The translations under genes were made by a program, and so were the position numbers. From Chloroflexota bacterium (GTDB taxonomy: Bacteria > Chloroflexota > Dehalococcoidia > JACPQF01), in assembly GCA_016190625.1 (NCBI GenBank), contig JACPQF010000075.1:1-62537 (forward strand): a stretch of DNA of 62,537 bases. The letters run 5' to 3'. Below, piece by piece: positions 31,437 through 62,537 of the stretch; the stretch's first letter is position 1, and every line of letters starts with the position of its first letter. Below the pieces are notes generated by a model. That model did no database searches. It had not been told where the DNA came from and was given only the letters and a program-made list of their open reading frames with translations.

Positions 31437-31458
31437 CCTGCCTTCCGTCCGCCGATAG

Positions 31459-45088: not shown

Positions 45089-45211
45089 CGCTCGGTTCCT
45101 CCAAGCCATATTATAACATAGTCGGGGCGTCCGGAGCCTCTGGCACCCTTCCTGCACTCTGTTGTTGGTCGTCATGCCCAGATCAGTTCCGGCAAAAGGA
45201 GGGATGACATC

Positions 45212-46414: not shown

Positions 46415-46537
46415 CCATCGTGCATGGCGGGCAGCCCACCGTCGGGGCTGTGCCCTGAACGCGCCTCGGTAGCGAGTCCGGCCGTCGACACGTCTGATGA
46501 CGTCAAGTAATGAGTAGCAGAGACGTGGCCAATCATG

Positions 46538-47203
46538 TCACAGCTCGATCTCCCTGATGTCTGTGGCCACGATAAGCTTCGGCTCCGTCACTGCCTGTAC
46601 TTCTTCCACGGTGTAGCCAGGGGCGATTTCCTTGAGAACCAATCCATCTTTCGTTACGTCGATCACTGCCAGGTCGGTGACGATCAAATCGACGCATTCT
46701 TTCGCCGTCAGCTCGTAGGTGCATTCCCTCAGTATCTTCGGCTCACCTTCCTTGGTCGTGTGCTCCATCACGACGATTAGCCTCTTGGCACCCACGGCGA
46801 TATCCATTCCCCCACCGACGTTCCCCACTCCCCGGCGGGGATTGAGCCAGTTGGCCAGGTCGCCTCTCTCCGAGACCTGCAGGCCGCCTAAGACGGCCAC
46901 GTCCAGATGTCCTCCCCTGACAATGGCGAAAGAAAGAGCCGAGTCGAAGAAAGAGATGCCGGGCATTAGAGTAATAAACTGGCCACCGGCATTTATCAGG
47001 TTTATGTCGTACTCCGCGGGGTCACTGGCGAGCGGGCCAAAGCCAATGGCGCCGTTTTCGGTGTGGAACAGCACGGTTCTTCCCTCCGGCACGAAGTCGG
47101 AGGCTAGAGTGGGGATGCCGATCCCAAGGTTTACAATGTCACCATCCTGAAATTCCTTGGCTACCCTCAGGGCCATGGTCGTCCGCTCGAGTCTAGCCTT
47201 CAT
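46538..47203 (-). CDS. scoB: 3-oxoacid CoA-transferase subunit B
   Basis: NLGIGIP, ENG and SERGDLANW motifs. ATGA overlap with subunit A. Confidence 0.9.
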   Translation of the reverse strand: MKARLERTTMALRVAKEFQDGDIVNLGIGIPTLASDFVPEGRTVLFHTENGAIGFGPLASDPAEYDINLINAGGQFITLMPGISFFDSALSFAIVRGGHLDVAVLGGLQVSERGDLANWLNPRRGVGNVGGGMDIAVGAKRLIVVMEHTTKEGEPKILRECTYELTAKECVDLIVTDLAVIDVTKDGLVLKEIAPGYTVEEVQAVTEPKLIVATDIREIEL

Positions 47204-47925
47204 TGGTCACCTTCCCTTGTCCTCTTGACAATACGCTTCACAAACACGCCGGGAGTAACGATGGCTTCCGAGTCAAGCCCGCCCGGCTCCACAATCTCGT
47301 CGACTTCGACGATCGTGACGTTGGCCGCTGTGGCCATGATTGGATTGAAATGGCGAGAGGTCATGTTGTAGATGAGGTTTCCATAGGTGTCGGCTCGGAG
47401 CGCCCTGATCAGGGCAAAGTCGGCCCGGAGCGGCTTTTCGAAGATGTACTCCTCCCCATCGATCACCCTGTGCTCCTTGCCCACAGCCATGCGGGTGCCC
47501 ACGCCTGTGCGCGTGAAGAATCCCCCGATGCCTGCGCCACCGGCCCGAATTCGCTCCGCAAGAGTTCCCTGCGGCACCACCTCCAGCTCGGCTTTGCCTT
47601 CGAGATAGAGCTTCTCGAAGGCTGTGGGACGGGAGGACGACGGAGACACGGGAAAGGAGGCGATTGCCTTGCTTACCTGTCCGTTTTCCACCAGCATCGT
47701 CACGTTTGGGAAGGACAAAGCTGTAGCAGTCTTGGGCACGCCGGGTTCCGGATCGAAGCCGTACATGCCGACGCTATTGGAGATGATGGTCAGATTCTTA
47801 GCCCCCTGGTCGCGAAGGGCAACCAGCAACTGACTCGGCGCGCCGCCCGGCCCGCCGAAGGAAGCCACCATCATAGTAGCGCCGTCGCGAATGTCTTTCA
47901 CCGCCTCTGCGCAGTTTCTCCACAC
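47200..47925 (-). CDS. scoA: 3-oxoacid CoA-transferase subunit A
   Basis: AVKDIRDGATMMVASFGGPGGAP and EVVPQGTLAERIRAGGAGI. GTG start. A rare CTG start nearer the RBS cannot be excluded. Confidence 0.9.
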   Translation of the reverse strand: MWRNCAEAVKDIRDGATMMVASFGGPGGAPSQLLVALRDQGAKNLTIISNSVGMYGFDPEPGVPKTATALSFPNVTMLVENGQVSKAIASFPVSPSSSRPTAFEKLYLEGKAELEVVPQGTLAERIRAGGAGIGGFFTRTGVGTRMAVGKEHRVIDGEEYIFEKPLRADFALIRALRADTYGNLIYNMTSRHFNPIMATAANVTIVEVDEIVEPGGLDSEAIVTPGVFVKRIVKRTREGDQ

Positions 47926-48142
47926 TTTGTTGATTGCCAGCGCCGTTCACCTCCTTAGTTTGGATGGAGCGTCACTTCTCGGTGTCCGGCCCCTCTGTCG
48001 CCACCGCCATGCCAGGCGGTTGGCCGGAGTTCCCGTGGAACCAGAACCTCCCACACGAGCTTGCAGCAGCCCATGAAGAAGTTGATGGCAGTTCCTGCTA
48101 TGGCCCAAGACGCCTATCCTTAGGCCACCGTGGGAGGCGAGG

Positions 48143-48559
48143 TCACGGCTTGCCGAGCGGGCGAAACTTGGGTAGAGCGAACTCAGCCGTAATATCCTCG
48201 AACGCCACTTCTACCGGCATACCAATGTCTATCTCGTCAAGCGGGCACGCAATAATGTTCGTCAGCATGCGTGGCCCCTCTGCCAGCTCAACTATGGCCA
48301 CCGCGTAAGGAACGATACCCGCGAAAAACGCTCCGTAAGCCTGGTGAAAAACGACCCATGAGTAGATGGTTCCTTTCCCACTCATCGACGCCCACTCGGA
48401 GTTCTCGGAATAACACTTGGGGCAGATGACGCTGGCCGGATAGCGAACGTGGCCACAGTCGAGACATTTCTGCATACGAAGCTCATGCTTCCGACAATGC
48501 TCCCAGAATGGAGCAGTGTCGATAGTAGGAGTTGGCAACGGTCCGGCGTACTCAGTCAT
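48143..48559 (-). CDS. DUF35 Zn-ribbon/OB-fold protein
   Basis: MQKCLDCGHVRYPASVICPKC. RBS AAAGGAGG before ATG 48559. Confidence 0.85.
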   Translation of the reverse strand: MTEYAGPLPTPTIDTAPFWEHCRKHELRMQKCLDCGHVRYPASVICPKCYSENSEWASMSGKGTIYSWVVFHQAYGAFFAGIVPYAVAIVELAEGPRMLTNIIACPLDEIDIGMPVEVAFEDITAEFALPKFRPLGKP

Positions 48560-48601
48560 TTCTGCCTCCTTTCTGTTCATAGTATCCCCCGGTTCGGGGG
48601 G

Positions 48602-49735
48602 TCAACGCCGTAAGATCAGCGTAGCGTGGGTGGTGAGTATGCCGCCTTGGCTGCTGGCGATGGCGATTTCGGCATTGTTGACCTGTCTCGGGCCGCACTC
48701 GCCACGCAGTTGGCGTACCGCCTCGACGAGCAACAGCATCCCCGGCATACCGCTCTCGGATAGCAGGCCCCCCGCCGTGTTGCATGGTAGCTCGCCGCCG
48801 AGTTCTATGCGCCCATTCTGGACAAACGATCCCCCCTCGCCCTTCTTGCAGAAGCCGTAGTCTTCCAGCGTAACGAGCGCGGTATAGGTGAAGCAGTCAT
48901 AGATCTCGGCCAGGTCGATATCCTTCGGGGACACGCCGGCCATCTTGAACGCCATCTCGCCAGAGCGCTTGGCGCCGGTAACGGTCAGGCTCTCCCTCTG
49001 AGCGATGTCCCACGCTGGGTGCGCCTGTCCCCAACCCATCACGTAAACCGGCTTCTTGTTCAGCGTTTTCGCTCGCTCGGCAGAGGTTACAACTACCGCC
49101 GCGCCTCCATCTGAGACGAGGCAGCAATCGAGCAGATGGAAAGGCTCGACTACCCAACGGGATCTCTGATGATCTTCCAGCGTTATGGGCTTCTGCATCT
49201 GGGCATTGCGATTCATTGAGGCATGCTTGCGGAAAGCAACGGCGATAGCGCCCAGTTGCTCACTTGTGGTGCCATACTCTTTCATGTGACGTCTTGCGGC
49301 CATTGCGTATCCGGCAGGCGCGCCGACGAAGCCAAAGGCGGCGTCGTCACTATTTACCCTGCCGTAGGTTCCGGGCGGTCCTGTTAGCGGATTATCCCCA
49401 TAGCTGCATACCACAGTGGTCGCCAGGCCGGCGTCGATGGCCATGGCAGCATACTGAACCATTGTACCGATTGTCGCACCAGCTAGGTCGATAACCGCCA
49501 TCAGCTTGTTCGTGATTCCTAGGGCCTGACATAGTTTTCCAGAGAAGAGCGAACTAAAGCCTGAGGTCGGATACTTCACCAGAACGCCGTCCACGTCCTC
49601 GCGTGTCAAACCGGCATCTTCCAACGCCGCCTTGATTGCTAGCACGTTAAAACCTATCGAGCTGACGCCGGGTACCTTCCCCAGCTTAGTATGCCCCACA
49701 CCAACAATAGCATATTTGTCTCCTAGGGAGCCCAT
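48602..49735 (-). CDS. thiolase-like protein (SCP-x / lipid-transfer-protein type)
   Basis: YAIVGVGHTKLGK, LLDCCLVSDGGAAVVV and NTAGGLLSESGMPG. Confidence 0.85.
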   Translation of the reverse strand: MGSLGDKYAIVGVGHTKLGKVPGVSSIGFNVLAIKAALEDAGLTREDVDGVLVKYPTSGFSSLFSGKLCQALGITNKLMAVIDLAGATIGTMVQYAAMAIDAGLATTVVCSYGDNPLTGPPGTYGRVNSDDAAFGFVGAPAGYAMAARRHMKEYGTTSEQLGAIAVAFRKHASMNRNAQMQKPITLEDHQRSRWVVEPFHLLDCCLVSDGGAAVVVTSAERAKTLNKKPVYVMGWGQAHPAWDIAQRESLTVTGAKRSGEMAFKMAGVSPKDIDLAEIYDCFTYTALVTLEDYGFCKKGEGGSFVQNGRIELGGELPCNTAGGLLSESGMPGMLLLVEAVRQLRGECGPRQVNNAEIAIASSQGGILTTHATLILRR

Positions 49736-49749
49736 TGCCACTTCCTTTC

Positions 49750-50523
49750 TCATCTCCCTTTCCAAACAGGCTTTCGCTTGGCCTTAAATGCTTCACGTCC
49801 CTCGACGGCATCCTCGGTTTCCTGCAAGAGGCTGCCAAGAAACCCTTCGAGCTTGATGCCTTCGTTCAGCGTCAGGTCATAACCCTTTATCGCAGCCTCC
49901 TTGATCGCCCGCACAGCTAAGGGGGGGCAATCGAGCAACCTCCGGGCGTAATCGAGGGCGGTGGGCATTAGTTCCTCCTTGGGCACGATCTTGTTTAACA
50001 TGCCCAGACGATAGGCTGCCTGAGCGTCAATACGGTCGCCGATGAGGAGGAGTTCCATAGCCAGGGGATAGGGTAACTGACGAATGGCCCGCTGGGTACC
50101 ACCGTTTCCTGGGAGGATGCCGCGCTTGACTTCTGAAAGGCCGAAGGTGGCGTGCTCGGCCGCGACGCGGATGTCACAAGCAAACAGCAGAGTAAGCCCG
50201 CCGCCCAGACAGTAGCCGTTCACGGCGGCGATCACCGGCTTGAACACGTCTAGGCCGCGGTTCAGAATGGGGAAAGGCGGGCGAATGAAGTAAGCTTCGG
50301 ACGGGCTCATGCGCCCGAAATTCGTCTTGAGGTCCGCCCCCGCCGAAAAGGCCCGATCCCCGGCGCCGGTGATGACCGCCACCCACATGTCCGGATCGTC
50401 GCGGAAGTCGACCCAGGCCTCCGAAATGCGCTGGTACATGTCCGGATCCATGGCGTTCATGGCCTCCGGCCGATTCATGGTAAGGAAAGCAATGTGGTCT
50501 TTTTTCTCGTAGATTAGTCCCAT
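49750..50523 (-). CDS. enoyl-CoA hydratase/isomerase (crotonase) family protein
   Basis: AFLTMNRPEAMNAM, VITGAGDRAFSAGADL and AAVNGYCLGGG. The track start at 50790 is over-extended. Confidence 0.9.
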   Translation of the reverse strand: MGLIYEKKDHIAFLTMNRPEAMNAMDPDMYQRISEAWVDFRDDPDMWVAVITGAGDRAFSAGADLKTNFGRMSPSEAYFIRPPFPILNRGLDVFKPVIAAVNGYCLGGGLTLLFACDIRVAAEHATFGLSEVKRGILPGNGGTQRAIRQLPYPLAMELLLIGDRIDAQAAYRLGMLNKIVPKEELMPTALDYARRLLDCPPLAVRAIKEAAIKGYDLTLNEGIKLEGFLGSLLQETEDAVEGREAFKAKRKPVWKGR

Positions 50524-50548
50524 GGTTCCGCCTTTCCTATTGCTAGTC

Positions 50549-51700
50549 CTAGTCGCGAAGCAAGTTGCGCGCGATGATGAACCGGTGAATCTCCGAAGGG
50601 CCCTCCCCGATTCGCATGACCCGAGCCTCACGATACCATCTCTCCAGAATGAGATCCTTCGATACCCCAAGACCGCCGTGAATCTGAATTGCCCTGTCGA
50701 CCACACGTCCGACCATCTCCGTGGAATAGACCTTGGCGATGGAGGCCTCGCTGCGCACGTCTTCGCCTCTCTCCGCCTTGAAGGCGGCATCCCAAGTGAG
50801 CCAGCGGGCTGCCCGCAGTTCTATTTCCGAATCAACCAGCATCCACTGGACCGCCTGCCGTTCGGCTAACAATCGGCCAAAGGTGGTCCTCTGCTTGGAG
50901 TAATCGATGGCCATCTTAAGGCTTCGCGACGCCATACCAAGCGGACGGGCGGCGTAGGTGATGCGGCCGTGAGTGAGGAAGTCCTGTGCCAGCATGAAGC
51001 CACGGCCAACTTCGCCTAGCCGGTTGGCATCCGGCACCACACAGTCCTCTAACACCAACTCGGAAGGATAGAGAGGCCTTATCACCTCCACGAGTCGGGC
51101 GACCTTGAATCCCGGCGTGCCTTTGTCGACCAAAAAGCAGGTTACGCCGTTCCGACCGGTGGTCCCGGGGATTCGCGCGAAGATCATGACGAAGTCGGCC
51201 TTATCACCCCCGGTGATGAAGATCTTGGTGCCGTTTAGGATCCAGTTGTCGCCATCTCTCACGGCGGTGGTGGCCAGCATCGAGGGATCGGCGCCCGCCC
51301 CGGGTTCGGTTTGGCCGAAAGCGGATTTCTTCTCGCCACGAATTGAAGGATAAAGGTAATGCTCCTTCTGGTCTTCGGTGCTTTCGTAGAGGGCCGCCGG
51401 TATGTCGCCACCGAATATGGGAGTGGAGGTGCCGGTGAGTACCCAGAGGCAGTGTCCCATCTCCTCGCCCACGATCACCTGCCCGAAGAGGCCAATACCC
51501 GGTCCGCCGAACTCCTCCGGAACGTCAAGGCACCACAGGCCCATCTCCTTAGCCATACCCTGCAGTCGGCCGATATGTGGCTCGGGAATCTCCACCGTGT
51601 CGACGGGCAACTCCTTTTCCAACGGGATGACCTCGCTATAGACGAAGCGCCTCACCGTGTCGCGCAGCATCTTCAACTCTTCCGGGATTTCGAAAGCCAT
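50549..51700 (-). CDS. acyl-CoA dehydrogenase
   Basis: FGQTEPGAGADPS, ITGG and IHGGLGVSKDLILERWYREARVMRIGEGPSEI. Confidence 0.9.
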   Translation of the reverse strand: MAFEIPEELKMLRDTVRRFVYSEVIPLEKELPVDTVEIPEPHIGRLQGMAKEMGLWCLDVPEEFGGPGIGLFGQVIVGEEMGHCLWVLTGTSTPIFGGDIPAALYESTEDQKEHYLYPSIRGEKKSAFGQTEPGAGADPSMLATTAVRDGDNWILNGTKIFITGGDKADFVMIFARIPGTTGRNGVTCFLVDKGTPGFKVARLVEVIRPLYPSELVLEDCVVPDANRLGEVGRGFMLAQDFLTHGRITYAARPLGMASRSLKMAIDYSKQRTTFGRLLAERQAVQWMLVDSEIELRAARWLTWDAAFKAERGEDVRSEASIAKVYSTEMVGRVVDRAIQIHGGLGVSKDLILERWYREARVMRIGEGPSEIHRFIIARNLLRD

Positions 51701-51711
51701 AACGTCTCCTT

Positions 51712-52962
51712 TCACAATGGTTCATCGCCGATGACCCCTTCTCGCCTCAAAGCGTCTCGTTCCTCACGCGACAGGCCTAAGATTTCGCCGAGTACGAAGT
51801 CGTTATGCTCGGCGAAAAGAGGCGGCGGCCGATGGATGCTTCCCGCGGTCTTGCTCAGCTTCCAAGCAACCCCCGGATAGGGGTAGGTTCCGGTGGCGGA
51901 ATGGAAAACGTTCTCAAAATAGCCACGGGAGACAAAATGCGGATTCGCCAGGATCTGCCTGATATTGAGGACGGCCGCGGCGGGAACCCCCGCTTCTTGG
52001 AGGATATGCATCACTTCGTCGTTGTCATGGCGTCGAGTCCATTCGTCTACCAGTTGGTCGAGATCGTCACCGTGGCGCCAGCGACTACTGGCACCAGTAA
52101 ACCGGTTGTCCTGCGCCAACCCAGGCTTGTCCATAGCCCGACAGAAGGCCTGCCATTCCTGGTCGTCGCTTACGGCGATGGCGACCCAGTTATCCTCGCC
52201 CTTGCAGCGATAGCAACCATGAGGCGCCATAGATGGATGGCGGTTTCCCTCCCGGCGCTGGACGCGGCCATTCATCGTGTAGTCCATGACTGCGTCGCCG
52301 AACATTTGGATGAGACTCTCGCGCAGGGACAGATCCACATATTGCCCCCGTCCCGTTTTGTTTCGGTATCGGATCGCCGCCAATAGGGCAAATGCGGCAA
52401 ACATACCCCCCGTAGGGTCGCCATAGGCAATGCCAGGCTTGAGAGGCGCCCCGTCAGCATAGCCTGTTAGGTCGGAGCATAAGGCCATTGCTTCGGTGCC
52501 CGTTCCATAGGTTACATAATCCCGATAGGGCCCCGACATGCCATAGCCGGGCATGGACACCATAACGAGGTCTGGCTTGATCGCACGCAGGGTTCCATAG
52601 TCGAGGCCGAAGTTTTTCATCACACGGGCGCTGTAGTTCTCGACCACCGCGTCGCTTACCTTCACCAGCTTGTTGAATACCTCTTTGCCCGTCGCATGAG
52701 TTAGGTCCAGAGTGATGGCATACTTGCTCCGGTTGAGCTCGTTGTAGTAGGCACCCCTGTTGTAGGGTTCGTCCCCTGGCTTGTCGTCGGGAAACATGCC
52801 TGTACCGGGGGCAACCGGTCCGTGGGGCCTGTCACATCGCACGCAGGACTCGATCTTAATGACCTCTGCCCCCATATCGGCGAGCAACTTCGTCGCATAG
52901 GGCCCGGCAAATACCTGCGTCAGATCTGCGATTCGCAACCCCTCAAGAGCCAGCCTAGGCAC
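51712..52962 (-). CDS. family III CoA-transferase (CaiB/BaiF family)
   Basis: LEGLRIADLTQVFAGPYATKLLADMGAEVIKIE. Confidence 0.9.
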   Translation of the reverse strand: MPRLALEGLRIADLTQVFAGPYATKLLADMGAEVIKIESCVRCDRPHGPVAPGTGMFPDDKPGDEPYNRGAYYNELNRSKYAITLDLTHATGKEVFNKLVKVSDAVVENYSARVMKNFGLDYGTLRAIKPDLVMVSMPGYGMSGPYRDYVTYGTGTEAMALCSDLTGYADGAPLKPGIAYGDPTGGMFAAFALLAAIRYRNKTGRGQYVDLSLRESLIQMFGDAVMDYTMNGRVQRREGNRHPSMAPHGCYRCKGEDNWVAIAVSDDQEWQAFCRAMDKPGLAQDNRFTGASSRWRHGDDLDQLVDEWTRRHDNDEVMHILQEAGVPAAAVLNIRQILANPHFVSRGYFENVFHSATGTYPYPGVAWKLSKTAGSIHRPPPLFAEHNDFVLGEILGLSREERDALRREGVIGDEPL

Positions 52963-53009
52963 TCTATTCCACCTTCCCCAAATAATCGAGAGTCCTTCTC
53001 TATCCTACC

Positions 53010-54197
53010 TCACACCACTCCCAACTCCCCTAGTCTCACTAAATCATCCTCCGCATATCCCAAACGCCCACCCAGAGTCTCGGTTGTGTGCTCCCCCAGA
53101 AGAGGGGCTCGTCCCGCCTGCCAGGGTGTCTCGCTCATCTTAAACGGCGCTCCCGGGTAGAAGATGGGGCCCGTCACCGGGTGATGGATCTCGGCGAAGA
53201 AGTCGCGACTGCTGAACTGAGGGTCGTCGAGCAGCTCGTCGACGCGGCAAACTATGGCAAATGGCAGACGCCAGAGCTGGGCCATAGCGAAGATCTCCTG
53301 CTTGTTGTGCTGCATTAGCCACGGCAGGATGAGGGCGTCGATCTCGTCGGCGTGCACTCTCGGCGCCTTTTGCAACTCCTCGTCCAACAGGCGTGGCTCG
53401 TCTACAAAAGCCGCCAGGCGCTCCCACTCATGAACTGCGCCGTGCACATGGACGTAGCCATCTTTGCAGGGCAAGATCGTCGACGGATAGGCGACGTGAT
53501 GGCGAGCTCCATTGCGAGTTCTGATCTGGCCAGTGTAGTTGTGCATCATGGTTGTGGCTTCCATTATCGAGGTTATGCATTCGACCACCGCGATGTCCAC
53601 GTGCTGGCCAATGCCCGAGACATCGCGACAGTAAAGGGCGGTTAACGTGGCTACGGCGGCGTTAAGGCCGGCCTGCATCTCGGCCTGCGAACCGCCCGTT
53701 TTTAGCGGCTCCCGCTCTGGGAGGCCGGTAACGTGCATTAGACCACCAAGGGCGAGGGCAATCATGTCCGAGCCTTTGTAGTCGCGGTAAGGCCCTGTTT
53801 GTCCAAAATAGGAGATGGAAGTGACAATGATGTCGGGTTTAATTGCCTCCAGATCCTCGTAGCCCAGGCCTAGGCTGGTCATGACGCCGGGAGAAGAGCT
53901 TTCCACCACTATGTCGGCCTGTTTGACTAGCTTCTTGAAGATACTGGCGCCGGTTTGGCAGGCAATGTCGAGGGTTAGGCTCTTCTTATTGGTATTGAGG
54001 AAGAGGAAGGTCCCACTGCGCTCCGGCCCCGGATGATCCTCGAGACAAGGGCCGAGGCGGCGCGTCGGCTCGCCTGAGAGGGGTTCCACCTTAATCACTT
54101 CGGCACCAAAATCGGCCAGCAATTTGGTGCAAAAAGCCCCCGAGATACCCTGGCTGAGGTCGAGAACCAGCATACCAGTTAGAGCCTGATCATGCAC
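53010..54197 (-). CDS. family III CoA-transferase (CaiB/BaiF family)
   Basis: LTGMLVLDLSQGISGAFCTKLLADFGAEVIKVE. GTG 54197 with GGGAGGG 6 nt upstream. The track start at 54341 is over-extended. Confidence 0.85.
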   Translation of the reverse strand: MHDQALTGMLVLDLSQGISGAFCTKLLADFGAEVIKVEPLSGEPTRRLGPCLEDHPGPERSGTFLFLNTNKKSLTLDIACQTGASIFKKLVKQADIVVESSSPGVMTSLGLGYEDLEAIKPDIIVTSISYFGQTGPYRDYKGSDMIALALGGLMHVTGLPEREPLKTGGSQAEMQAGLNAAVATLTALYCRDVSGIGQHVDIAVVECITSIMEATTMMHNYTGQIRTRNGARHHVAYPSTILPCKDGYVHVHGAVHEWERLAAFVDEPRLLDEELQKAPRVHADEIDALILPWLMQHNKQEIFAMAQLWRLPFAIVCRVDELLDDPQFSSRDFFAEIHHPVTGPIFYPGAPFKMSETPWQAGRAPLLGEHTTETLGGRLGYAEDDLVRLGELGVV

Positions 54198-54370
54198 GAA
54201 AGACCCTCCCTTACGAGCCTGTTCACTCCAATGGCTTCGAGTGGAAACACCCTCAAAGCATCTTTGTCGCACCGCTCTCCCCAGTAGATATATGCTTGGA
54301 ATGTCATACGTTGCTTGATAGTAACAGAGGCTTCGCCCCAAGTCAATTCACCAGTTGATCCAATGATCAT

Positions 54371-56161
54371 CTAATCTGTTGGCGCGTCGGCCGGTTCCAA
54401 ATGATGTCCAGGGTCACAGGGTCGTACTGCGTATCTGCTCCTTCTATCAAAACACCATTTCCCTACCGGCCGAGACCCTCTCAGCTTTTTCGTGCCTTCC
54501 CAGTCCACCCTTTCCGTCGCCATATCTAGCGCTACCCCGTAGCTCGCGTCCGCTTGCTCCGGGGAAACCAGCCCCGAAATCACATCCTCTAGCACCAACG
54601 CCGGGTCTCGCTCCAAGGGGTCACCAACGCCCCCTCCTCCATCCATTTTTACGCTTATTAGGTCGCCACCTCTCACGTCAAACGTTCGCATGGCTGGAAG
54701 CGGAGACCCATTGATGGCAAGATTACCTCCTTCACCCGGATGGCCGCCGAGCAAGCCACGTGCCTGATGCATGGTTCCCTTCATCTTAGGCAAACATGCC
54801 CCAGATGCCTTACCCATGATCCGCACATCGTACTCCACACCACATCCCCCTCGATGCCTCCCCGGTCCGCCTGAATCAGGCCTCAACTGGACCCTCTCGA
54901 CGAGGAGGGCAGGCGTAACGTACTCCTGAACCTCCGTGGGTGTACTTGTGATGGTGCTAGGCCAGGCAACACCAGACGGCCCATCGCCGCTATACCGGCC
55001 GCCCATGCCGGATGAGTGGAGCAGCACAGCCTCGAACAACCTACCATAGTCGTCGACGCCCTGTATCCTGAACGCCCCGGTGCAGCCACGGGTTTCTGCC
55101 TGCAACCGCTCTGGAAGGGCTTTAGCCAGCGCAGCGTATACTGCAGATAGGCATAAGTCACCCAGAACAGTGCGAGAGGCAGCGCCAACCGACCGTGGCC
55201 TCGGGTTCACTATGGTTCCCAAAGGCATTGTCACTGTCACCGGCCGCATCTGCCCACTGTTGTTGGGCAAATGGGGAGCCACTAGTGCTTTGATGCCGAT
55301 GAGGGTCTGAGCCTTGCTGTACAGGGGCATAGAGTTGATAGACCACTCGCTTTGCGGAGAGGTGCCAGTGTAGTCAACATGTATGTCTGTGCCCCGAACG
55401 CTTACGCTCACCTTGACGGTAAAGTCGCCGTCAATGCCATCCCCCTCGATCTCGCCCTCGAAGTCCCCATCTGGTATCTTGGCTACGGCCTCCCGCATCG
55501 CCCCTTCCGAGCGGGAGAGAATGGTCTCCGACAACGTGCCAAAATCCGCGATCCCCTGCATTTCAATCAGCTCTATCAGCTTGTTCCTCATTAGGTTGTT
55601 ACCGACAAGCTGAGAGTTAAAGTCCCCCATCACCTCGTCGGGGTAGCGCACGTTGTCGCGAATGATCTGCAGCACCTCCTCGTTGAACTGCCCTTTCTTG
55701 GCGATCTTGACCGACCACAAGAGGAGGCCTTCCTCGAAGATGGAGCGATTATCCGGCATGGGGCCACGGCCGCCGATGTCAGGCCAGTGGACGACACTGC
55801 CAGCTAAAGCCACCAGCTTTCCCTTGTAGAAGATGGGTTCCAACGCGAAGATGTCGTAAAGGTGGCCGGAGTTCTCCCAGGGGTTGTTGTTGATTACGAC
55901 ATCCCCTGGTTCCAGCGTCTCCGCCGGAACTCTTTGCAGAACTTCCTTTGCAATGAGAGGTATGCAGCCGGCGAAGACGGCAATGCCGAGGGAGCCCTGA
56001 GCTATGCAATCACCCTTGGGGTCAAGCAGGCAACAGCAGAAATCCCTCGACTCTCTGATGACGAGGGAGAAGGCCGTCCTAATTACCCCGGCCTCCGCTT
56101 CGTCACAGATCGAGATCAGTCTGCTCCAGAAGGTATTCAGGGCGACCGAATCGTACTGCAT
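54371..56161 (-). CDS. hydantoinase B/oxoprolinase (HyuB) family protein
   Basis: FWSRLISICDEAEAGVIRTAFSLVIRESRDFCCCLLDPKG and PGGGGVGDP-like GGGGVGDPLERD. RBS AAGGAG. Confidence 0.9.
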   Translation of the reverse strand: MQYDSVALNTFWSRLISICDEAEAGVIRTAFSLVIRESRDFCCCLLDPKGDCIAQGSLGIAVFAGCIPLIAKEVLQRVPAETLEPGDVVINNNPWENSGHLYDIFALEPIFYKGKLVALAGSVVHWPDIGGRGPMPDNRSIFEEGLLLWSVKIAKKGQFNEEVLQIIRDNVRYPDEVMGDFNSQLVGNNLMRNKLIELIEMQGIADFGTLSETILSRSEGAMREAVAKIPDGDFEGEIEGDGIDGDFTVKVSVSVRGTDIHVDYTGTSPQSEWSINSMPLYSKAQTLIGIKALVAPHLPNNSGQMRPVTVTMPLGTIVNPRPRSVGAASRTVLGDLCLSAVYAALAKALPERLQAETRGCTGAFRIQGVDDYGRLFEAVLLHSSGMGGRYSGDGPSGVAWPSTITSTPTEVQEYVTPALLVERVQLRPDSGGPGRHRGGCGVEYDVRIMGKASGACLPKMKGTMHQARGLLGGHPGEGGNLAINGSPLPAMRTFDVRGGDLISVKMDGGGGVGDPLERDPALVLEDVISGLVSPEQADASYGVALDMATERVDWEGTKKLRGSRPVGKWCFDRRSRYAVRPCDPGHHLEPADAPTD

Positions 56162-56214
56162 GTTGCTCCTTGATGAGTGGTCTAATGCCGGTTGTGATTG
56201 CCTGCGCGCCGAAT

Positions 56215-56238
56215 AGGGGCGAGCGGCCGCTCGCCCCT
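56215..56238. repeat. perfect 24-nt palindrome AGGGGCGAGCGG|CCGCTCGCCCCT (REP-like)
   Basis: Read directly. Lies between the SBP and HyuB genes. Confidence 0.85.
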
Positions 56239-56422
56239 GCACTCCCTTGCGTCACCTCGTTTGGGACCTACCCTGCAGGGGCACTCCTGATCTGTTTTCA
56301 TCCTCGGTAGCGCCCCGACTGGAGCATCAATGACTTCACATTGGTCAAGGATGCCGTGAAGCCTTCCTCATAAAGTCAAACTCTGGCGAGTTCCCCTGAT
56401 GACAGGATCGAGACATGCTCGG

Positions 56423-58072
56423 TCACTTGGCATGGGTGATCGTAGCGTAGACGGGTCCCCACATTGACGCGCCGCCCTTGACGGGGGTAAACTCGCCAAT
56501 CTTCGGGCCAATGGCAAGTATGGTCTCGATGTCCAGGTAGGAGATATGGGCGTGATTTTGCTGGCCCATAATGGCAATCTTAGCTGCCACCTGCTTTCTC
56601 TCCGCTTGGTCCTTGATCAGGGGAAGCGAGTCCAGCAGCTTGTCTAGCTCGGGGATGTTGATATTGTGATAGCTACCTGCCGAGTGGTAGATCGACGCCA
56701 GGCTTTCATCTTGCCACAGGTTTCCCCCGCTGGTACCGGGTTGAATCGTATTCCAGACTTCCGGTTTCGCGGGACCGGCAAGCCACAGGGGCGTGAAGGC
56801 GCTGTATTGTATGGGCGTGATCTTTGCCTCAATCCCAACCTTGCGCCAGTAAGCAGCCAGAGCTTGGGTTGACGTGCTGCCAATGCCACCTGCGGAGGTG
56901 TCCCACACCGTCACGTTAAAGCCACTGGGGTATCCCGCCTCAGCTATCAGCTTCTTTGCTCGGTCGGGGTCAAAGGGGTCTGGCTTCATCGTGTTTGCAT
57001 CGAAAAAGTAAGCCGTGGGGGGCACCTGAAATGCGAAGCCCGGCTTCGCGTATCCCGCGAATAGGGTGTTGGCTAGCTCTTGCCGGTTGACTGCTAGAGA
57101 TATCGCAGTACGCACCTTAACGTTCCCTAGCGGCTGCTTCTCCGGATTGCTAAGATCATACCATGACACAGAGTAGAGCCTGCTCTGTCCATCGAAGGAT
57201 GAAACACGAAGGCCGGCCGCCTTGAGGCCGGCTACGGAATCGGGCGCTACCTGAGCTAGGTCGAGCTCTCCGGTCTTCAGCATGGCAACCTTGGTCGACT
57301 CCTCTGTCAAATTGAGGATAGTCAGGTTCTTGAACTTGGGGATCTCGCCCCAGTAGTTCTCGTTGGCCTCGAGCTCGAGCCGATCTCCAGGCACATAGTT
57401 CACGACCTTCCACGCCCCGCTGCCCATAGGATGCGCGGTCAGGTAGTCTTCGCCGCGTTCCTGAACATACTTCTTGGACAGGACCATCGTAGATGCAGTA
57501 AAGCCGGGCCGCTCGAAGCCAGCCAGAACCCGAAACTGCGGCTGTTTTAGGTGAAGGATCACGGTGTAGCCGTCCTTGACCTCGATGCTGTCTATCTGCT
57601 TAGGCCAACTGGCGCGCTCATTATTGCTGGCGTGGACGACCTTGGGATCCATGATCCTCTCGAGGCTGAACTTGGCATCCTCCCCGGTGAGGTCGCTGCC
57701 ATCGTGAAACTTGACCCCTTTTCGGAGATAGAACGTATGGGTCAAGCCATCGGCGGAAATCTCCCACCGCTCCGCCAGCCCCGGTGCTAGCTGGCCATCT
57801 GACGTCAGCTTGAGGAAAGAGTCGTAGATGGCGGAACCCTTGCCAGCGCCGGCGTTGCCGTATTCATGGACGCGACCGACATCTTGGTAACTCCAAGCGA
57901 CTCTGAGGGTGCCGGAGGGCCTTGCAGGCGTCGGGGTAGCCGCCGCTGTAGGTTGAGAAGCAGGGGAACCCACGGACGTAGTGGGCGCTGTGGGCGTCGT
58001 CGAGCAAGCGGTCGCCAGCAGGATACCGACCAGCGTAGCAACCAGAGTTAACCTCACTGATTTGGAACGCAT
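56423..58072 (-). CDS. ABC transporter substrate-binding lipoprotein, family 5 (Opp/Dpp/Nik-like)
   Basis: Lipobox LLATAC, with family 5 length and pattern (WKVVNYVPGDRLELEANENYWG). RBS AAGGAGG. No permease or ATPase genes nearby. Confidence 0.85.
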   Translation of the reverse strand: MRSKSVRLTLVATLVGILLATACSTTPTAPTTSVGSPASQPTAAATPTPARPSGTLRVAWSYQDVGRVHEYGNAGAGKGSAIYDSFLKLTSDGQLAPGLAERWEISADGLTHTFYLRKGVKFHDGSDLTGEDAKFSLERIMDPKVVHASNNERASWPKQIDSIEVKDGYTVILHLKQPQFRVLAGFERPGFTASTMVLSKKYVQERGEDYLTAHPMGSGAWKVVNYVPGDRLELEANENYWGEIPKFKNLTILNLTEESTKVAMLKTGELDLAQVAPDSVAGLKAAGLRVSSFDGQSRLYSVSWYDLSNPEKQPLGNVKVRTAISLAVNRQELANTLFAGYAKPGFAFQVPPTAYFFDANTMKPDPFDPDRAKKLIAEAGYPSGFNVTVWDTSAGGIGSTSTQALAAYWRKVGIEAKITPIQYSAFTPLWLAGPAKPEVWNTIQPGTSGGNLWQDESLASIYHSAGSYHNINIPELDKLLDSLPLIKDQAERKQVAAKIAIMGQQNHAHISYLDIETILAIGPKIGEFTPVKGGASMWGPVYATITHAK

Positions 58073-58207
58073 CGTCGAACCTCCTTTGCAGTTTTGTCTT
58101 CTACATCACGATACGCCTCGTCGTGGCCTGTGGCATGGCAAGAACCCATTGATGCCTTCCACCGCCTCTTCGTAGGTCTTTCTTATCTTGCTCGTGGCCC
58201 TGATTAG

Positions 58208-58669
58208 CTAATTGGCCGGCCTAAAGTAGCTGATGTCCAGAATACTCGCCTTGCGGGACTCGCTGTATACTGGCTCTACCTTCATGCCCACCTTGATTTT
58301 CTCCAGGTCAATTTCACCCAGCAAATGTGTCAAACTGGTATCAGCCCCATCGAGCTTGATCAATGCGAAGGCAAAGGGCGCCGCCATGGGGTGGACGGGC
58401 AGGCTGTAACGGACAACGGTGTAGCTTTCCACCGTGCCGGAACCTTCGAGTTCAACCCACTCATCCATCCTGCCGAAGCAGTGCAGGCACGTCTCTCGGG
58501 GAGGCACATAGACCATATTGCACCGGCTACACCTGATACCAAGGGTCTTCTTGCTGTCGCGCAGAGCAATCAGGAACCGGCTCATCACTCCGCCCGCTGC
58601 ATATCGATAAGGCAGAATTATCGCGCCCTCTATTGATAGCGGAGCTTTTGGCTTTGTCTCTTGACTCAA
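58208..58669 (-). CDS. DUF35 Zn-ribbon/OB-fold protein
   Basis: GIRCSRCNMVYVPPRETCLHC. TTG start with GAGGAGG 5 nt upstream. Confidence 0.85.
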   Translation of the reverse strand: MSQETKPKAPLSIEGAIILPYRYAAGGVMSRFLIALRDSKKTLGIRCSRCNMVYVPPRETCLHCFGRMDEWVELEGSGTVESYTVVRYSLPVHPMAAPFAFALIKLDGADTSLTHLLGEIDLEKIKVGMKVEPVYSESRKASILDISYFRPAN

Positions 58670-58679
58670 CTTGGCCTCC

Positions 58680-59180
58680 TCATTCCTGAACTGTTTTGAA
58701 GTGAATGATGTCCCCCAGGTCGCCCTTACGCTGCGCCTCTGGCTTGAGCACCGCTTCTACCCTCATTCCCACCTTCAGATTCTCAGGATTGGTCTCTTTC
58801 AGGAAGTGTTCGAGGGCGCAGGGAGCACCATCAAGCTGGATGGTGGCCACACAGTAAGGGACATGCCTCGGCTTGCCGGTTTCTGGGTCAAGGAACGGAG
58901 CCAGTGTGACAGTGTAGACCAGCACGGTACCCCGGGGACCCACCTGCACCCACTTGTCAAAGCCATCCATCTCGACATGGCACCTGCCGCAGACTTTTCG
59001 GGGTGGTAGATGATAGCGCCCGCACTGGGGACACTCGTTGGCATATATCTTGCCATTATCCCGCAGTTCCTCGAACGCCTTGCTCAGAAAATCGCCGGCG
59101 CCCCAACGATAGGTCATGTTCATCTCCCCGTGAATCCCGCAGGGAACAATGATAAGGTCCTGAGTCTGTTCCGTAGCCAT
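58680..59180 (-). CDS. DUF35 Zn-ribbon/OB-fold protein
   Basis: ANECPQCGRYHLPPRKVCGRC. RBS AGGAGGG. Confidence 0.85.
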   Translation of the reverse strand: MATEQTQDLIIVPCGIHGEMNMTYRWGAGDFLSKAFEELRDNGKIYANECPQCGRYHLPPRKVCGRCHVEMDGFDKWVQVGPRGTVLVYTVTLAPFLDPETGKPRHVPYCVATIQLDGAPCALEHFLKETNPENLKVGMRVEAVLKPEAQRKGDLGDIIHFKTVQE

Positions 59181-59188
59181 TTACCCTC

Positions 59189-60361
59189 CTAGTCCAAGTT
59201 CTTCTTGAGGAGAAACAGGTTCGTCCAGTTGGCACCGCCAAAGGAACTGGCGAGGGCCGAATTAACATTCTTGGTTACTTGGTGTCCCCCGGCATCGCCG
59301 CGGATCTGTAGTGCGGCCTCAGCCACGCGAATCATAGCCGTTGCCCCGATCGGGTTGGTCGACTGCACACCGCCCGAGGGGTTTACGGGGAAGGCACCGT
59401 CCAGAGCGGTAACGCCCTTTTCCGCCAGCTTCCACGCCTCCCCCTTTTCGCAGATAAGAAAGTCTTCCAGCCAGGCGATCTCTGCCCAGGCAGCAGGGTC
59501 ATACATTTCAAACATATCAACCTGTTTCATCGGATTGGTTATGCCGTTCCTCTTGAACAGTTTGATCGCTGAATCAGTCTGTGATTGCATGCTGGGTATT
59601 GGGTCAGGCGCAAACGTTGCCCTCCACGCTTCCATATGCGAGGTGACGAAGTCGGTAATCCACACCGGCTTCTTCGTCATCTTTTTGGCCTTCTCCTCGG
59701 ACGCTAACACTATGGCGCAGGCTCCGCTGGACTGCGGACACATGTGCAAAAGCCTCAACGGCCAGATAAGGATGGCCGAGTCTAGAACGTCGTCAACAGT
59801 CAGTGTTAGCTTCAGATGGGAATAAGGGTTCTTCAAGGCATTCCCAGCAGCTTTGACCCGGACTATTGCCCCCGGCTCCTCTCCGCAGCGATATTGGTTC
59901 ATATAGCTCGCTGCAACAATGGCCAGTGCGCCTACTGCCCCGGTATGATAGGGTCGCAAAGTCAGCGGGTCAGCGCAGGTGATAATGGCCGAAGTCGTGT
60001 TGCCGCCACTTTCCTCCAGCTTCTCGCTGCCTATGATAAGCACCACGTCATATTTCCCTGAAGCCACGTGATACCATCCCGATGCGACCATCGTACCGCC
60101 GGTAGTACCCCCCGTATTCATCTTGAGGCCGGGCTTCATGTAGGCACCGCTTCCCTCGACAGTCATCGCATCCATAAGGTTATGCCCCTCGAACAGGTCC
60201 ATATTACCATTAAGGACGGCATCAACGTCCTCGATGGTAATCTCCGCATCTTGGAGTGCCTTCCTGGCGGCCTCATTAATAAGCTCGGTATGGTTGCGGT
60301 CGATGTGACGCTTCTTGTGCAAGGTTTGACCGATACCTACAATTGCAACTCTTCTTCCCAA
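59189..60361 (-). CDS. thiolase-like protein (SCP-x/Ltp type)
   Basis: VAIVGIGQT, LLHMCPQSSGACAIVL and NPSGGVQSTNPIGATA. TTG 60361 with GGAGG 5 nt upstream. The track start at 60412 overlaps the upstream gene. Confidence 0.85.
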   Translation of the reverse strand: MGRRVAIVGIGQTLHKKRHIDRNHTELINEAARKALQDAEITIEDVDAVLNGNMDLFEGHNLMDAMTVEGSGAYMKPGLKMNTGGTTGGTMVASGWYHVASGKYDVVLIIGSEKLEESGGNTTSAIITCADPLTLRPYHTGAVGALAIVAASYMNQYRCGEEPGAIVRVKAAGNALKNPYSHLKLTLTVDDVLDSAILIWPLRLLHMCPQSSGACAIVLASEEKAKKMTKKPVWITDFVTSHMEAWRATFAPDPIPSMQSQTDSAIKLFKRNGITNPMKQVDMFEMYDPAAWAEIAWLEDFLICEKGEAWKLAEKGVTALDGAFPVNPSGGVQSTNPIGATAMIRVAEAALQIRGDAGGHQVTKNVNSALASSFGGANWTNLFLLKKNLD

Positions 60362-60372
60362 AGCAGCCTCCT

Positions 60373-61527
60373 CTAAATACCAAGCACCATGACGTTGTGC
60401 AACTGCCCGCAAGCCCCGTCTACCCCATGGGCAACGGCCACCCTGGCACCGGGCACCTGCCTGGCTCCCGCTTGATTACTTAGCTGTAAGAAAGCCTCGG
60501 CGACGCGTACCGCGCCGTCTACTGTCACCGGGTTGCCCACGAGCGAACCACCAGAAGGGTTGACCGGCAACCTGCCGCCCATGTCTGTAACGCCTTTGGC
60601 CAGCAACTCTTTGGCCTCTCCCTCTCCACATAGCCCAAGTCCCTCGGTATACATCAGTTCCTGATAGGCGTAGGAAGCCGATATTTCGGCCAGGCTGATC
60701 TCTTTGGCCGGGTCCTTGATACCAGCCTCTTTGTAAGCCTGCCTGGCGGCTGACACCAGTGCATCGCACTTGGCGAGGTCCCGGTCTCCCGGCATATGCG
60801 CATCATAGCAACTGCCAAAACCCTTGATCCAAATCGGATTGCTGGTGATCTTCTTGGCCTTGTCCTCGCGCGCCAGGATTATGGCGCAGGCTCCGTCAGA
60901 GGTCGGCTTAGCGTCCAGCTCACGAATCGGCGAAGCCAACTCCTTAGACTTGAGCACATCCTCAACGCTGAGTTTCCGGGGCGATTGAGCATACGGGTTG
61001 TTCCGAGCATTGCTGTGCGCCCTCACGACAACCCTGGCGCAGTCTTCGGGAGTGACGGAATACTTATCCATATACCTTCTGGCCTGGAGCGCCGCTGCCG
61101 CGCAGAAGTCCATGCCCAACATCCGGTGGACGAACGGCTCCATCGACATCCATTCGACCAGCCTTCCGTTGGTTATGGACTCGCGGCACCATGCGACCAT
61201 GAGCACAACGTCATAGTGCCCCGAGAGTATCTGCATGCAGCCGTAAGCGGCTGCACTCACACCGTTACCAGCCACCTTTTCCTCAGGGCGTAGGTGCGCG
61301 CCAGCCACATCAGATGCAAACATCCCCGAGATGGTGCGACCATCCCAAAGGTCCTGAGAGCAAGTCACCGTTGAGTCAATTCCGGTGCCATCCAAAGTAA
61401 ATTTGAGGCCGGTCTGCTCTCGGACCTGTTTTACCACATCAAAGATCATCTCGCTGAGATCGACACCTTCTTTTAGCGGCTCGTATTTGGTCTGGGCTTG
61501 CGCTACAATGCCTACCTTTTCATTCAT
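60373..61527 (-). CDS. thiolase-like protein (SCP-x/Ltp type)
   Basis: VGIVAQAQTKY, DAKPTSDGACAIIL and NPSGGSLVGNPVTVDG. ATG 61527 with GGAGA 6 nt upstream. Confidence 0.85.
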   Translation of the reverse strand: MNEKVGIVAQAQTKYEPLKEGVDLSEMIFDVVKQVREQTGLKFTLDGTGIDSTVTCSQDLWDGRTISGMFASDVAGAHLRPEEKVAGNGVSAAAYGCMQILSGHYDVVLMVAWCRESITNGRLVEWMSMEPFVHRMLGMDFCAAAALQARRYMDKYSVTPEDCARVVVRAHSNARNNPYAQSPRKLSVEDVLKSKELASPIRELDAKPTSDGACAIILAREDKAKKITSNPIWIKGFGSCYDAHMPGDRDLAKCDALVSAARQAYKEAGIKDPAKEISLAEISASYAYQELMYTEGLGLCGEGEAKELLAKGVTDMGGRLPVNPSGGSLVGNPVTVDGAVRVAEAFLQLSNQAGARQVPGARVAVAHGVDGACGQLHNVMVLGI

Positions 61528-61546
61528 CAATTATCTCCACACACCG

Positions 61547-61900: not shown

Positions 61901-61903
61901 TCC

Positions 61904-62419: not shown

Positions 62420-62537
62420 CTATAGTGGACCCGTAAAACTGGACACGAAAACGCCGAATAATAAGTTAGAATGGCGACATGAGAAAGCGCTACTCGAACA
62501 CGTTTAAGGCACAAGTTGTCCACGAGGTCCTGAGGGA

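Follow-up and report, generated by a model that had tools for sequence, protein, structure and literature searches.

A Dehalococcoidia gene cluster predicted to shorten organic acids by CoA transfer and retro-aldol cleavage

Contig JACPQF010000075.1 of a Chloroflexota bacterium (lineage Dehalococcoidia, assembly GCA_016190625.1) was analysed over its full 62,537 nucleotides, hereafter the window. Between positions 46538 and 61527 it contains 14 consecutive open reading frames (ORFs), all on the minus strand and with no gene in between (Table 1). A sequence-only reading had described this 15-kb array as a beta-oxidation cluster that activates its substrate by CoA transfer and resembles the benzylsuccinate (bbs) operon. 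The gene order and families that it gave were matched by the ORFs and by Pfam for all 14 genes. The nearest database relatives of the encoded proteins, at 52–85% identity, are proteins from Chloroflexota and Dehalococcoidia metagenome-assembled genomes (MAGs), which makes an uncultured Chloroflexota bacterium the source of the contig. None of the 12 proteins other than ScoA and ScoB reached an NCBIfam equivalog or subfamily cut-off, so no named pathway can be assigned. As argued below, the three 'thiolases' of the array look, from their active-site residues, like retro-aldol C–C lyases.

Table 1. Genes of the array and the two gene remnants at its 5' border. Short names are those used in the text.
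Feature	Position	Strand	Support
thlA, SCP2-thiolase-fold protein	60373-61527	-	Pfam Thiolase_C_1 1.9e-29
thlB, SCP2-thiolase-fold protein, start codon uncertain	59189-60412	-	Pfam Thiolase_C_1 2.1e-28, Thiolase_N 4.3e-09
DUF35a, Zn-ribbon + OB-fold	58680-59180	-	Pfam zf-ChsH2 + OB_ChsH2_C
DUF35b, second Zn-ribbon + OB-fold	58208-58669	-	Pfam zf-ChsH2 + OB_ChsH2_C
SBP5, family 5 solute-binding lipoprotein	56423-58072	-	Pfam SBP_bac_5 4.4e-82
HyuB-like (hydantoinase B / oxoprolinase family)	54371-56161	-	Pfam Hydantoinase_B 3.4e-130
CoAT1, family III CoA-transferase	53010-about 54197, start inferred from homologues	-	Pfam CoA_transf_3 2.2e-101
CoAT2, family III CoA-transferase	51712-52962	-	Pfam CoA_transf_3 8.7e-113
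ACAD, acyl-CoA dehydrogenase, short/medium-chain type	50549-51715	-	all three ACAD Pfam domains
ECH, crotonase-fold enzyme	49750-about 50526	-	Pfam ECH_1 8.6e-63
thlC, Sal/SLP-type thiolase-fold protein	48602-49735	-	Pfam Thiolase_C_1 7e-60
DUF35c, Zn-ribbon + OB-fold	48143-48580	-	Pfam zf-ChsH2 4.2e-11, OB_ChsH2_C 3.9e-23
ScoA, 3-oxoacid CoA-transferase subunit A, family I	47200-47925	-	Pfam CoA_trans 3.1e-56; TIGR02429
ScoB, 3-oxoacid CoA-transferase subunit B	46538-47203	-	Pfam CoA_trans; TIGR02428
NAD-epimerase-type gene, 5'-truncated	61904-62419	-	translation: YSESK kept, N-terminus missing
radical-SAM-like gene, C-terminal stub	about 61547-61717	-	tblastn; in-frame stops

Start codons were adjusted by comparison with homologues before gaps were computed; the ATG of thlA at 61527 directly follows a TTG at 61530. 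The genes form five blocks: thlA-thlB-DUF35a-DUF35b (61527-58208), SBP5 (58072-56423), HyuB (56161-54371), CoAT1 to DUF35c (about 54197-48143) and ScoA-ScoB (47925-46538). Within blocks, neighbouring genes overlap or are spaced by 47 nt or less. From CoAT2 through DUF35c they overlap or are separated by no more than 22 nt, and the stop codon of CoAT2 overlaps the start of ACAD by 4 nt. The blocks themselves are separated by gaps of 135, about 261, about 173 and 217 nt, which suggests that the array consists of five probable units. A scan for promoters and terminators found 8 promoters, compared with 7.0 in shuffled sequence, and 10 terminators, compared with 13.3. As neither exceeds the shuffled control, co-transcription cannot be read from the sequence. 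An Rfam search of positions 45000-62537 found no regulatory RNA.

A scan of ORFs over the whole window found none of the AMP-binding family, which agrees with the earlier statement that the cluster has no acyl-CoA ligase. The same scan found no HyuA, no ABC permease or ATPase, no 3-hydroxyacyl-CoA dehydrogenase (3HCDH) and no intact short-chain dehydrogenase/reductase (SDR). It also found no Cys-bearing thiolase, with the contig ends limiting the view. The combination of a 3-hydroxyacyl-CoA dehydrogenase and a Cys-dependent thiolase that defines canonical beta-oxidation is thus missing from the scanned ORFs.

The cleavage step centres on thlC and DUF35c. In an alignment to solved SCP2-type thiolases, thlC lacks both the nucleophilic cysteine ('LAGAT') and the histidine of the GHP motif ('SESGMPGM'), whereas BbsB has 'SACSAG' and 'GHPIGASG' at these sites. 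The nucleophile site 'DLAGAT' and the motif 'IYDCFTYT' of thlC align to 'DLGGAS' and 'IYDCYTIT' of the steroid retro-aldolase CtSal. Mutagenesis of CtSal identified Tyr302 and Cys304 of its YDCY motif as the catalytic pair, and its Gly in place of the thiolase nucleophile makes thiolysis impossible (PMC12329534). We examined these positions in 84 members of the thlC family. The Y-D-C-[YF] motif has Tyr in all 84, Asp in 83, Cys in 80 and Phe or Tyr in all 84, and the nucleophile column holds Gly in 52, Ala in 31, Met in one and Cys in none.

Structural comparisons point in the same direction. The best PDB matches of thlC are 4u4e, an uncharacterised Sphaerobacter protein, and the aldolase complexes Ltp2-ChsH2(DUF35) (6ok1, 231 bits) and Sal-Shy(DUF35) (9myr, 202 bits), although its identity to the Sal and Ltp2 systems is only 34–38%. 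A Foldseek search with the AlphaFold model of thlC (mean confidence, pLDDT, 84.5) placed 4u4e, 6ok1 and 9myr on top and BbsB at rank 25 or lower. The model superimposes on 6ok1 and 9myr with TM-scores of 0.86–0.88, but all SCP2 thiolases are similar and the fold alone does not discriminate between them. DUF35c, a protein with a Cys4 ribbon encoded 21 nt downstream of thlC, best matches the DUF35 partners of the aldolases (Shy-DUF35, 9myr_B, 85.8 bits; ChsH2-DUF35, 6ok1_B, 83.8 bits) and scores 23.7 bits with BbsA. On the NCBIfam BbsB model, with its cut-off of 750 bits, thlA, thlB and thlC reached 118, 120 and 146 bits. On the BbsA model (cut-off 250), DUF35b reached 27 bits and DUF35a and DUF35c gave no match.

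The BbsAB-type thiolytic step of the sequence-only reading is therefore not upheld: thlA, thlB and thlC all lack the nucleophilic cysteine and the GHP histidine, and the BbsA and BbsB models are missed. We predict that thlC-DUF35c is a Sal-type 3-hydroxyacyl-CoA retro-aldolase. An Ltp2-type aldolase was rejected, as Tyr344, the second catalytic Tyr of Ltp2, aligns to a Gly in thlC and the motif reads YDCF rather than YDHF. If thlC acts as predicted, a BbsCD-type dehydrogenase is not needed. Its absence had been noted as a gap; no intact one is indeed found among the ORFs of the window, but this is better explained by retro-aldol chemistry and is probably not a true gap.

The two enzymes expected to act before cleavage are encoded directly upstream of thlC. 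The best PDB match of ACAD is 1ukw (252 bits), its catalytic glutamate lies within 'IGEGPSE', and ACAD orthologs of 45–57% identity adjoin thlC orthologs in 18 of 23 loci (described below). The crotonase departs from the canonical two-Glu site of enoyl-CoA hydratases: compared with the rat enzyme, E144 is replaced by Thr ('GGGLTL' versus 'GGGCEL'), and E164 is kept ('SEVKRG'). Thr occupies the first position in 44 of the 45 crotonases encoded beside thlC orthologs, which makes it a feature of the subfamily. We presume from its family that the window crotonase is an enoyl-CoA hydratase.

CoAT1 and CoAT2 are adjacent paralogues, 47 nt apart and 35% identical. Each is closest to a different subunit of benzylsuccinate CoA-transferase: CoAT1 scores 185 bits with 9fn0_A and 137.6 with 9fn0_B, and the best PDB match of CoAT2 is 9fn0_B (214.6 bits). 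The input to a neighbour-joining tree comprised the window proteins, four PDB sequences and, from related loci, both paired and single transferases. In this tree CoAT1-type sequences grouped with 9fn0_A (bootstrap 91) and CoAT2-type sequences with 9fn0_B (bootstrap 70), and the single-gene transferases of other cluster variants formed a separate clade. The phylogenetic placement that had been called for thus yields a BbsE/F-like grouping, in a small tree whose reference set leaves aside SmtAB, Mct, BaiF and CaiB. At the position of the catalytic aspartate (Asp169 of Frc), CoAT2 has Asp ('AYGDPTGG'), as does 9fn0_B. CoAT1 has Glu ('SQAEMQAG'), its orthologs have E, E, E, T and G, and 9fn0_A has Tyr ('NQAYRMA'). 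The tandem CoAT1-CoAT2 pair is kept in L001, L002, L094 and L103, four of the loci used for comparison. Together with the affinity of each subunit to a different Bbs subunit, this supports the earlier suggestion of a heteromer. CoAT1 and CoAT2 are therefore a probable BbsEF-like heteromeric transferase that activates its substrate by CoA transfer, with CoAT2 as the predicted catalytic subunit and CoAT1 as a divergent one.

A third family III CoA-transferase paralogue lies elsewhere in the window, at 13707-15329 on the plus strand (540 aa, Pfam domain from residue 149). It is solitary among glycosyltransferase genes and groups with the Frc-like 10uh and with SUGCT (9br6), not with the Bbs-like pair.

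To assess conservation, metagenomes were scanned with the thlC alignment, which returned 80 loci; neighbours were counted in the 23 loci whose thlC ortholog has 5 kb or more of sequence on either side. DUF35 was present, adjacent to the thlC ortholog, in 22 loci, a crotonase in 21, ACAD in 18 and a family III CoA-transferase in 17; 13 loci had all four. As a control we used 80 genome loci anchored on HyuB homologues (relatives of at most 41% identity), of which two contained a thlC-like and DUF35 pair. The clustering is therefore not a chance arrangement, and these neighbourhoods indicate that the core (CoAT, ACAD, ECH, thlC and DUF35) is a real functional unit, widely distributed across phyla.

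Two layouts of the core predominate. The first, ACAD-ECH-CoAT-thlC-DUF35 with a single transferase, is found in L118, L131, L145 and others, often with GntR-HyuA-HyuB before it and TctC, SDR, LivKHMGF, AtuA and an acyl-CoA synthetase after it. In the second, found in L092, L094, L095 and L103, the order is thlC-DUF35-ACAD-ECH and a divergent CoAT1-CoAT2 pair lies upstream. Literature searches on the gene combination and on Chloroflexi family III transferases returned no description of the cluster or the core. A conserved operon of the first type, GntR-HyuA-HyuB-ACAD-ECH-CoAT-thlC-DUF35-(TctC)-SDR-LivKHMGF-AtuA-acyl-CoA synthetase, spans 3029-21107 in L131 and 353-15866 in L145 and also occurs in L118, L129, L132, L137 and L155. 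It is similar to an atu cluster but without the carboxylase, and no published account of it came to light.

The thlA-thlB-DUF35a-DUF35b block appears to be a different system. At its nucleophile site thlA has Ala, with 'SASY' replacing HDCF and Asn replacing the GHP histidine. In thlB the nucleophile site holds Gly, and Asn-Pro replaces His-Pro. DUF35a shows a CxxC-x10-CxxC motif in its translation, and DUF35b is 36% identical to it. The four-gene order is repeated on plasmid p1 of Cupriavidus necator C39 (44, 45, 33 and 39% identity), surrounded by a crotonase, two acyl-CoA synthetases, a true Cys-bearing SCP2 thiolase and an SDR. A plasmid of Streptomyces clavuligerus carries [fused 2xDUF35]-thlA-thlB with the same residue pattern. 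The thlB-type Tyr motif reads 'EMYDP', 'EMYEP' and 'EIYVP' in the window, Cupriavidus and Streptomyces, respectively, and thlA is degenerate in all three. That thlB keeps this residue while thlA is degenerate in three organisms suggests a heterodimer with one active subunit. As the Tyr of the Y-D-x motif is kept, thlB is likely the catalytic subunit, and thlA is probably the non-catalytic subunit of a heteromeric lyase. We infer that the block encodes a second lyase, composed of two thiolase-like and two DUF35 proteins. Neither thlA nor thlB was found near thlC orthologs in any of the 23 loci.

A 194-aa ORF at 41389-41973 (minus strand) has a sub-threshold match to a ChsH2-type zinc ribbon (E = 7.8e-05; 22.8 bits versus a cut-off of 23.2); it could be one more DUF35-like protein, or the match could be due to chance.

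Three other parts of the array may support the core. SBP5 has a lipobox-like N-terminal 'LLATAC' and is presumed to be an uptake receptor. A 55%-identical ortholog adjoins HyuB genes in L003, and SBP5 genes flank the core in L088-L091. HyuB, called as a protein of 596 aa (P0121), best matches N-methylhydantoinase (208 bits) and the beta subunit of caprolactamase (161 bits) in the PDB. An acetone-carboxylase-like role of the Hyu-type enzymes is disfavoured by these scores, compared with 78 bits for acetone carboxylase alpha. A tblastn search with a HyuA query over the window found no HyuA partner. A HyuA gene comes before HyuB in the proteobacterial core clusters and in nearly every one of the 80 control loci, but L003, which holds 52%-identical HyuB relatives, has none either. 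The window HyuB belongs to a HyuA-less clade, and it may have an accessory role. Six of the 23 loci have an HyuAB of a different subfamily ahead of the core. Exact-sequence look-ups of CoAT2 and of P0122, a HyuB relative of 82% identity, matched no contig.

The L003 locus itself (1-6257 of a Dehalococcoidia MAG, GCA_030650265) contains two tandem HyuB genes with SBP5 beside them and no HyuA, a layout that points to a HyuB system working without HyuA. Ahead of HyuB-HyuB-SBP5, this locus encodes a 332-aa protein with a weak Radical_SAM match (E = 4.5e-04).

ScoA and ScoB exceed their NCBIfam subfamily cut-offs (TIGR02429, 260.5 bits versus 128.5; TIGR02428, 287.2 versus 243.55), and ScoB has the catalytic-Glu motif 'TENG' within 'FHTENGAIG'. 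By these markers ScoAB is, as first read, a genuine family I 3-oxoacid CoA-transferase. It occurs near a thlC ortholog in one of the 23 loci, and L001 has a ScoB-like gene (60% identity) immediately upstream of CoAT1-CoAT2-ACAD.

No relative was found to carry the complete 14-gene array, whose modules stand apart in the closest relatives. In L084, whose thlC is 84% identical, the order is thlC-ECH-DUF35 and thus differs from the window; a non-orthologous transferase pair lies 5 kb away, beyond opposite-strand genes and an insertion sequence (IS) fragment. L001 has ScoB-like-CoAT1-CoAT2-ACAD and L002 has CoAT1-CoAT2, in both cases with chorismate mutase and DAHP synthase following. The ACAD gene of L001 (11281-12420, 53% identical to that of the window, right after CoAT2) is missing from the called-gene list of this MAG. 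In the more distant L103 (41% GC), CoAT2, CoAT1, thlC, DUF35, a 139-aa ORF, ACAD, ECH, three Dpp-type permeases, SBP5, ScoA, ScoB and a further ECH form one block. Scrambling in relatives, which had been named as a sign that the array is no single cluster, is therefore seen in part: L001, L002, L003 and L084 carry modules apart, whereas L103 repeats the CoAT pair, core, SBP5 and ScoAB. As judged from these neighbourhoods, the 15-kb array is a mosaic of five separately conserved modules.

The 5' border of the array bears traces of rearrangement. The SDR-like gene upstream of thlA is disrupted, as had been noted: it keeps YSESK but has lost its Rossmann N-terminus. Between it and thlA lies the stub of a radical-SAM-like gene, of which 35 aa (61684-61580) are 51% identical to the 332-aa protein of L003 (tblastn, E = 4.7e-07). 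With two gene remnants beside thlA, this border is a rearrangement scar.

Taken together, we favour, with some reserve, a chromosomal catabolic locus whose core route runs from CoA transfer through dehydrogenation and hydration to retro-aldol cleavage. We infer the activities, the CoA donor, the hydration and any co-transcription from the observed families, residue patterns, gene order and neighbourhoods. A carboxylic acid would be taken up with the aid of the SBP5 lipoprotein and converted to a thioester by CoAT1/CoAT2, with succinyl-CoA or acetyl-CoA as donor. ACAD would then put in a 2,3-double bond, and the Thr/Glu crotonase would hydrate it to a 3-hydroxyacyl-CoA. Finally, thlC-DUF35c would split the bond between C-alpha and C-beta, yielding an aldehyde or ketone and a short acyl-CoA that could be reused as CoA donor. 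On such a route a ligase, a 3-hydroxyacyl-CoA dehydrogenase and a thiolase would all be dispensable, and the cluster would probably shorten an imported acid without classical beta-oxidation. Through ScoAB the pathway may connect with succinyl-CoA or with a 3-oxoacid as product. We regard ScoAB, the second lyase module, SBP5 and HyuB as accessory, and their coupling to the core as plausible.

Several points weigh against the retro-aldol route. The closest solved homologue of thlC, 4u4e, is uncharacterised, and retro-aldol activity in this clade is a prediction. The crotonase has one of the two canonical glutamates and may be an isomerase or have another role. The hydratase of the Sal and Ltp2 systems is MaoC-type with a fused DUF35, whereas that of the window is crotonase-type and DUF35c stands alone. 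No aldehyde dehydrogenase for an aldehyde product is present in the window. The gaps between blocks may permit separate transcription of the modules, which, as noted, are found apart in the closest relatives. A dehydrogenase and a true thiolase could also be encoded beyond the 62.5-kb contig. Proteobacterial versions of the core carry an adjacent SDR, which may indicate an oxidative step in general. Such a step belongs to a true bbs-like beta-oxidation, in which a 3-oxoacyl-CoA is cleaved by thiolysis and the dehydrogenase either comes from another locus or disappeared together with the truncated gene upstream. This explanation would also account for the BbsEF-like transferase pair, for a gene content that parallels BbsEF, BbsG, BbsH and BbsAB and for the truncated dehydrogenase-family gene. 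We nevertheless consider it improbable. All three thiolase-like proteins lack the catalytic residues that BbsB has, the BbsA and BbsB equivalog scores are far under their cut-offs, DUF35c scores 84–86 bits with the aldolase partners and far less with BbsA, and the truncated gene is of NAD-epimerase rather than BbsCD type and lies amid decayed remnants.

The 15 kb may instead hold independent modules placed together, with only the six-gene core as a functional unit and the periphery serving other substrates. In favour of this, modules stand alone in the four closest relatives, their families are rich in paralogues, and thlA/thlB and ScoAB are absent or rare near thlC orthologs. The inter-module gaps and the remnants at the border fit as well. 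On the other hand, all 14 genes lie on one strand without intervening genes, L103 unites the CoAT pair, core, SBP5 and ScoAB in a single block, and in L001 the CoAT pair has a ScoB-like gene right beside it. SBP5 also lies beside the core in L088-L091, as does an HyuAB of another subfamily in some of the counted loci. We give this explanation an appreciable but minor chance, and the estimate concerns the periphery, not the core. Degradation of a steroid, hopanoid or comparable alicyclic compound at its carboxylated side chain, as a Chloroflexota counterpart of Sal/Ltp2 and Ltp3/Ltp4, seems very unlikely to us. The nearest characterised relatives of thlC and DUF35c are indeed steroid side-chain aldolases, a thiolase-like tandem with two DUF35 domains mirrors the ltp4-ltp3 layout, and EchA19 is the second-best NCBIfam match of ECH. 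However, that match reaches 245 bits against a cut-off of 400, the mirrored layout depends on DUF35 domains that are presumed for Rv3521, and no steroid ring-degradation or oxygenase genes were found among the window ORFs. The core also occurs with LivK-, TctC- and Dpp-type uptake systems, the kind usually seen for small polar acids.

Returning to the retro-aldol route, a bolder extension, which we hold to be a long shot, is that the core is a widespread and undescribed alternative to the second half of beta-oxidation outside steroids, serving acids whose beta-carbon cannot be oxidised. Such acids could, for instance, be beta-methyl-branched or ring-substituted; a tertiary alcohol would form on hydration, and its retro-aldol cleavage would yield a ketone and acetyl-CoA. 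The recurrent Hyu-type enzymes and ScoAB could handle the ketone: it might first be carboxylated, at the expense of ATP, to a 3-oxoacid, which would then receive CoA, and the biotin carboxylases of the Atu/Liu route would be bypassed. Proteobacterial versions of the core have AtuA, SDR and acyl-CoA synthetase and no carboxylase. If the retro-aldol prediction itself holds, many environmental 'acetyl-CoA acetyltransferase' or 'thiolase' annotations would denote C–C lyases, and chain shortening without ligase or dehydrogenase would be widespread among presumed degraders of recalcitrant organic acids. The absence of the nucleophilic Cys combined with the presence of Y-D-C offers a sequence rule for re-annotation. 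To our knowledge, thiolase-fold retro-aldolases with DUF35 partners have so far been known only from steroid side-chain degradation. Here, a Sal-like active-site design is found in a conserved module of several gene contexts, including Chloroflexota-type loci and loci with TctC/LivK-type transporters.

The remainder of the window is ordinary chromosome, with recA, recX, RNase Y, fmt, mutL, glycosyltransferases, four MFS transporters and a multihaem cytochrome. The cytochrome (36501-38684, minus strand, 727 aa) has an MtrC/MtrF-like domain (3.8e-53) and is of the outer-surface electron-transfer type, which is unexpected on a Chloroflexota contig. The MFS genes (about 480–520 aa, minus strand) comprise three in tandem at 28304-32895 and a fourth at 34855-36300, which follows a CMD-family gene and a MobA-like gene. 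A cell-envelope glycosylation block on the plus strand (9723-13272 and 18088-26241) encodes three tandem GT9 heptosyltransferase-like proteins, a GT2 protein, a methyltransferase, a DUF2079 protein and a 1290-aa PTPS-related membrane protein.

Known systems resemble the array in different parts. The HyuAB hydantoinases, oxoprolinases and caprolactamases have a full-length HyuB domain, as does the window protein, but their ATP-binding HyuA partner is absent from both the window and L003. The second lyase module recalls ltp3/ltp4 (Rv3523/Rv3522) of actinobacterial sterol side-chain degradation, adjacent divergent thiolase-like genes beside a DUF35-type partner, Rv3521, which we take to carry DUF35 domains. 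Wilbrink and colleagues reportedly proposed an aldol-lyase role for Ltp3/Ltp4 in 2012, the biochemical function of these proteins itself being unproven. The likeness to thlA/thlB is one of gene layout. The adjacency Rv3521-ltp4-ltp3 (Rv3521-Rv3522-Rv3523) is documented (PMC6429209).

The bbs operon of Thauera aromatica and Geobacter (bbsEF, G, H, CD, AB) shares with the window a two-subunit family III transferase in the same subunit order, with one subunit lacking the catalytic Asp, as well as ACAD, a crotonase and a thiolase-fold protein with a DUF35 partner. It differs in that BbsB has the Cys and His that the window thiolase-fold proteins lack, as reflected in the unmatched BbsA and BbsB models, and in that the window has no BbsCD and adds HyuB, SBP5, ScoAB and the second lyase module. 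The parallel with bbs drawn in the sequence-only reading thus holds for the transferase pair, ACAD, crotonase and DUF35 partner, within a core conserved as a unit, but fails at the thiolase step.

At this step the closer counterparts are Sal-Shy(DUF35) of Comamonas testosteroni and Ltp2-ChsH2(DUF35) of Thermomonospora curvata, with which thlC has the SCP2-thiolase fold in common. These steroid retro-aldolases have Gly or Ala for the nucleophilic Cys and a Zn-ribbon DUF35 partner, as in the thlC system, and the Y-D-C motif of thlC is identical to that of Sal and SLP. Unlike them, the window probably activates its substrate by CoA transfer rather than with a ligase, and no steroid genes lie nearby. 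Sal and Ltp2 act after an ACAD and a hydratase, so that a dehydrogenase and thiolase are dispensable, and we propose the same for thlC. The atf1-chsH4(-chsE6) genes with EchA19 of Mycolicibacterium neoaurum are actinobacterial, steroid-specific, KstR3-regulated and without a family III transferase, and the window crotonase differs by its Thr substitution. As in the window, however, the aldolase has a stand-alone DUF35 partner, of about 138 aa, and it takes as substrate what a crotonase-type hydratase produces, and Mycolicibacterium thus provides a precedent for this combination (PMC10398937).

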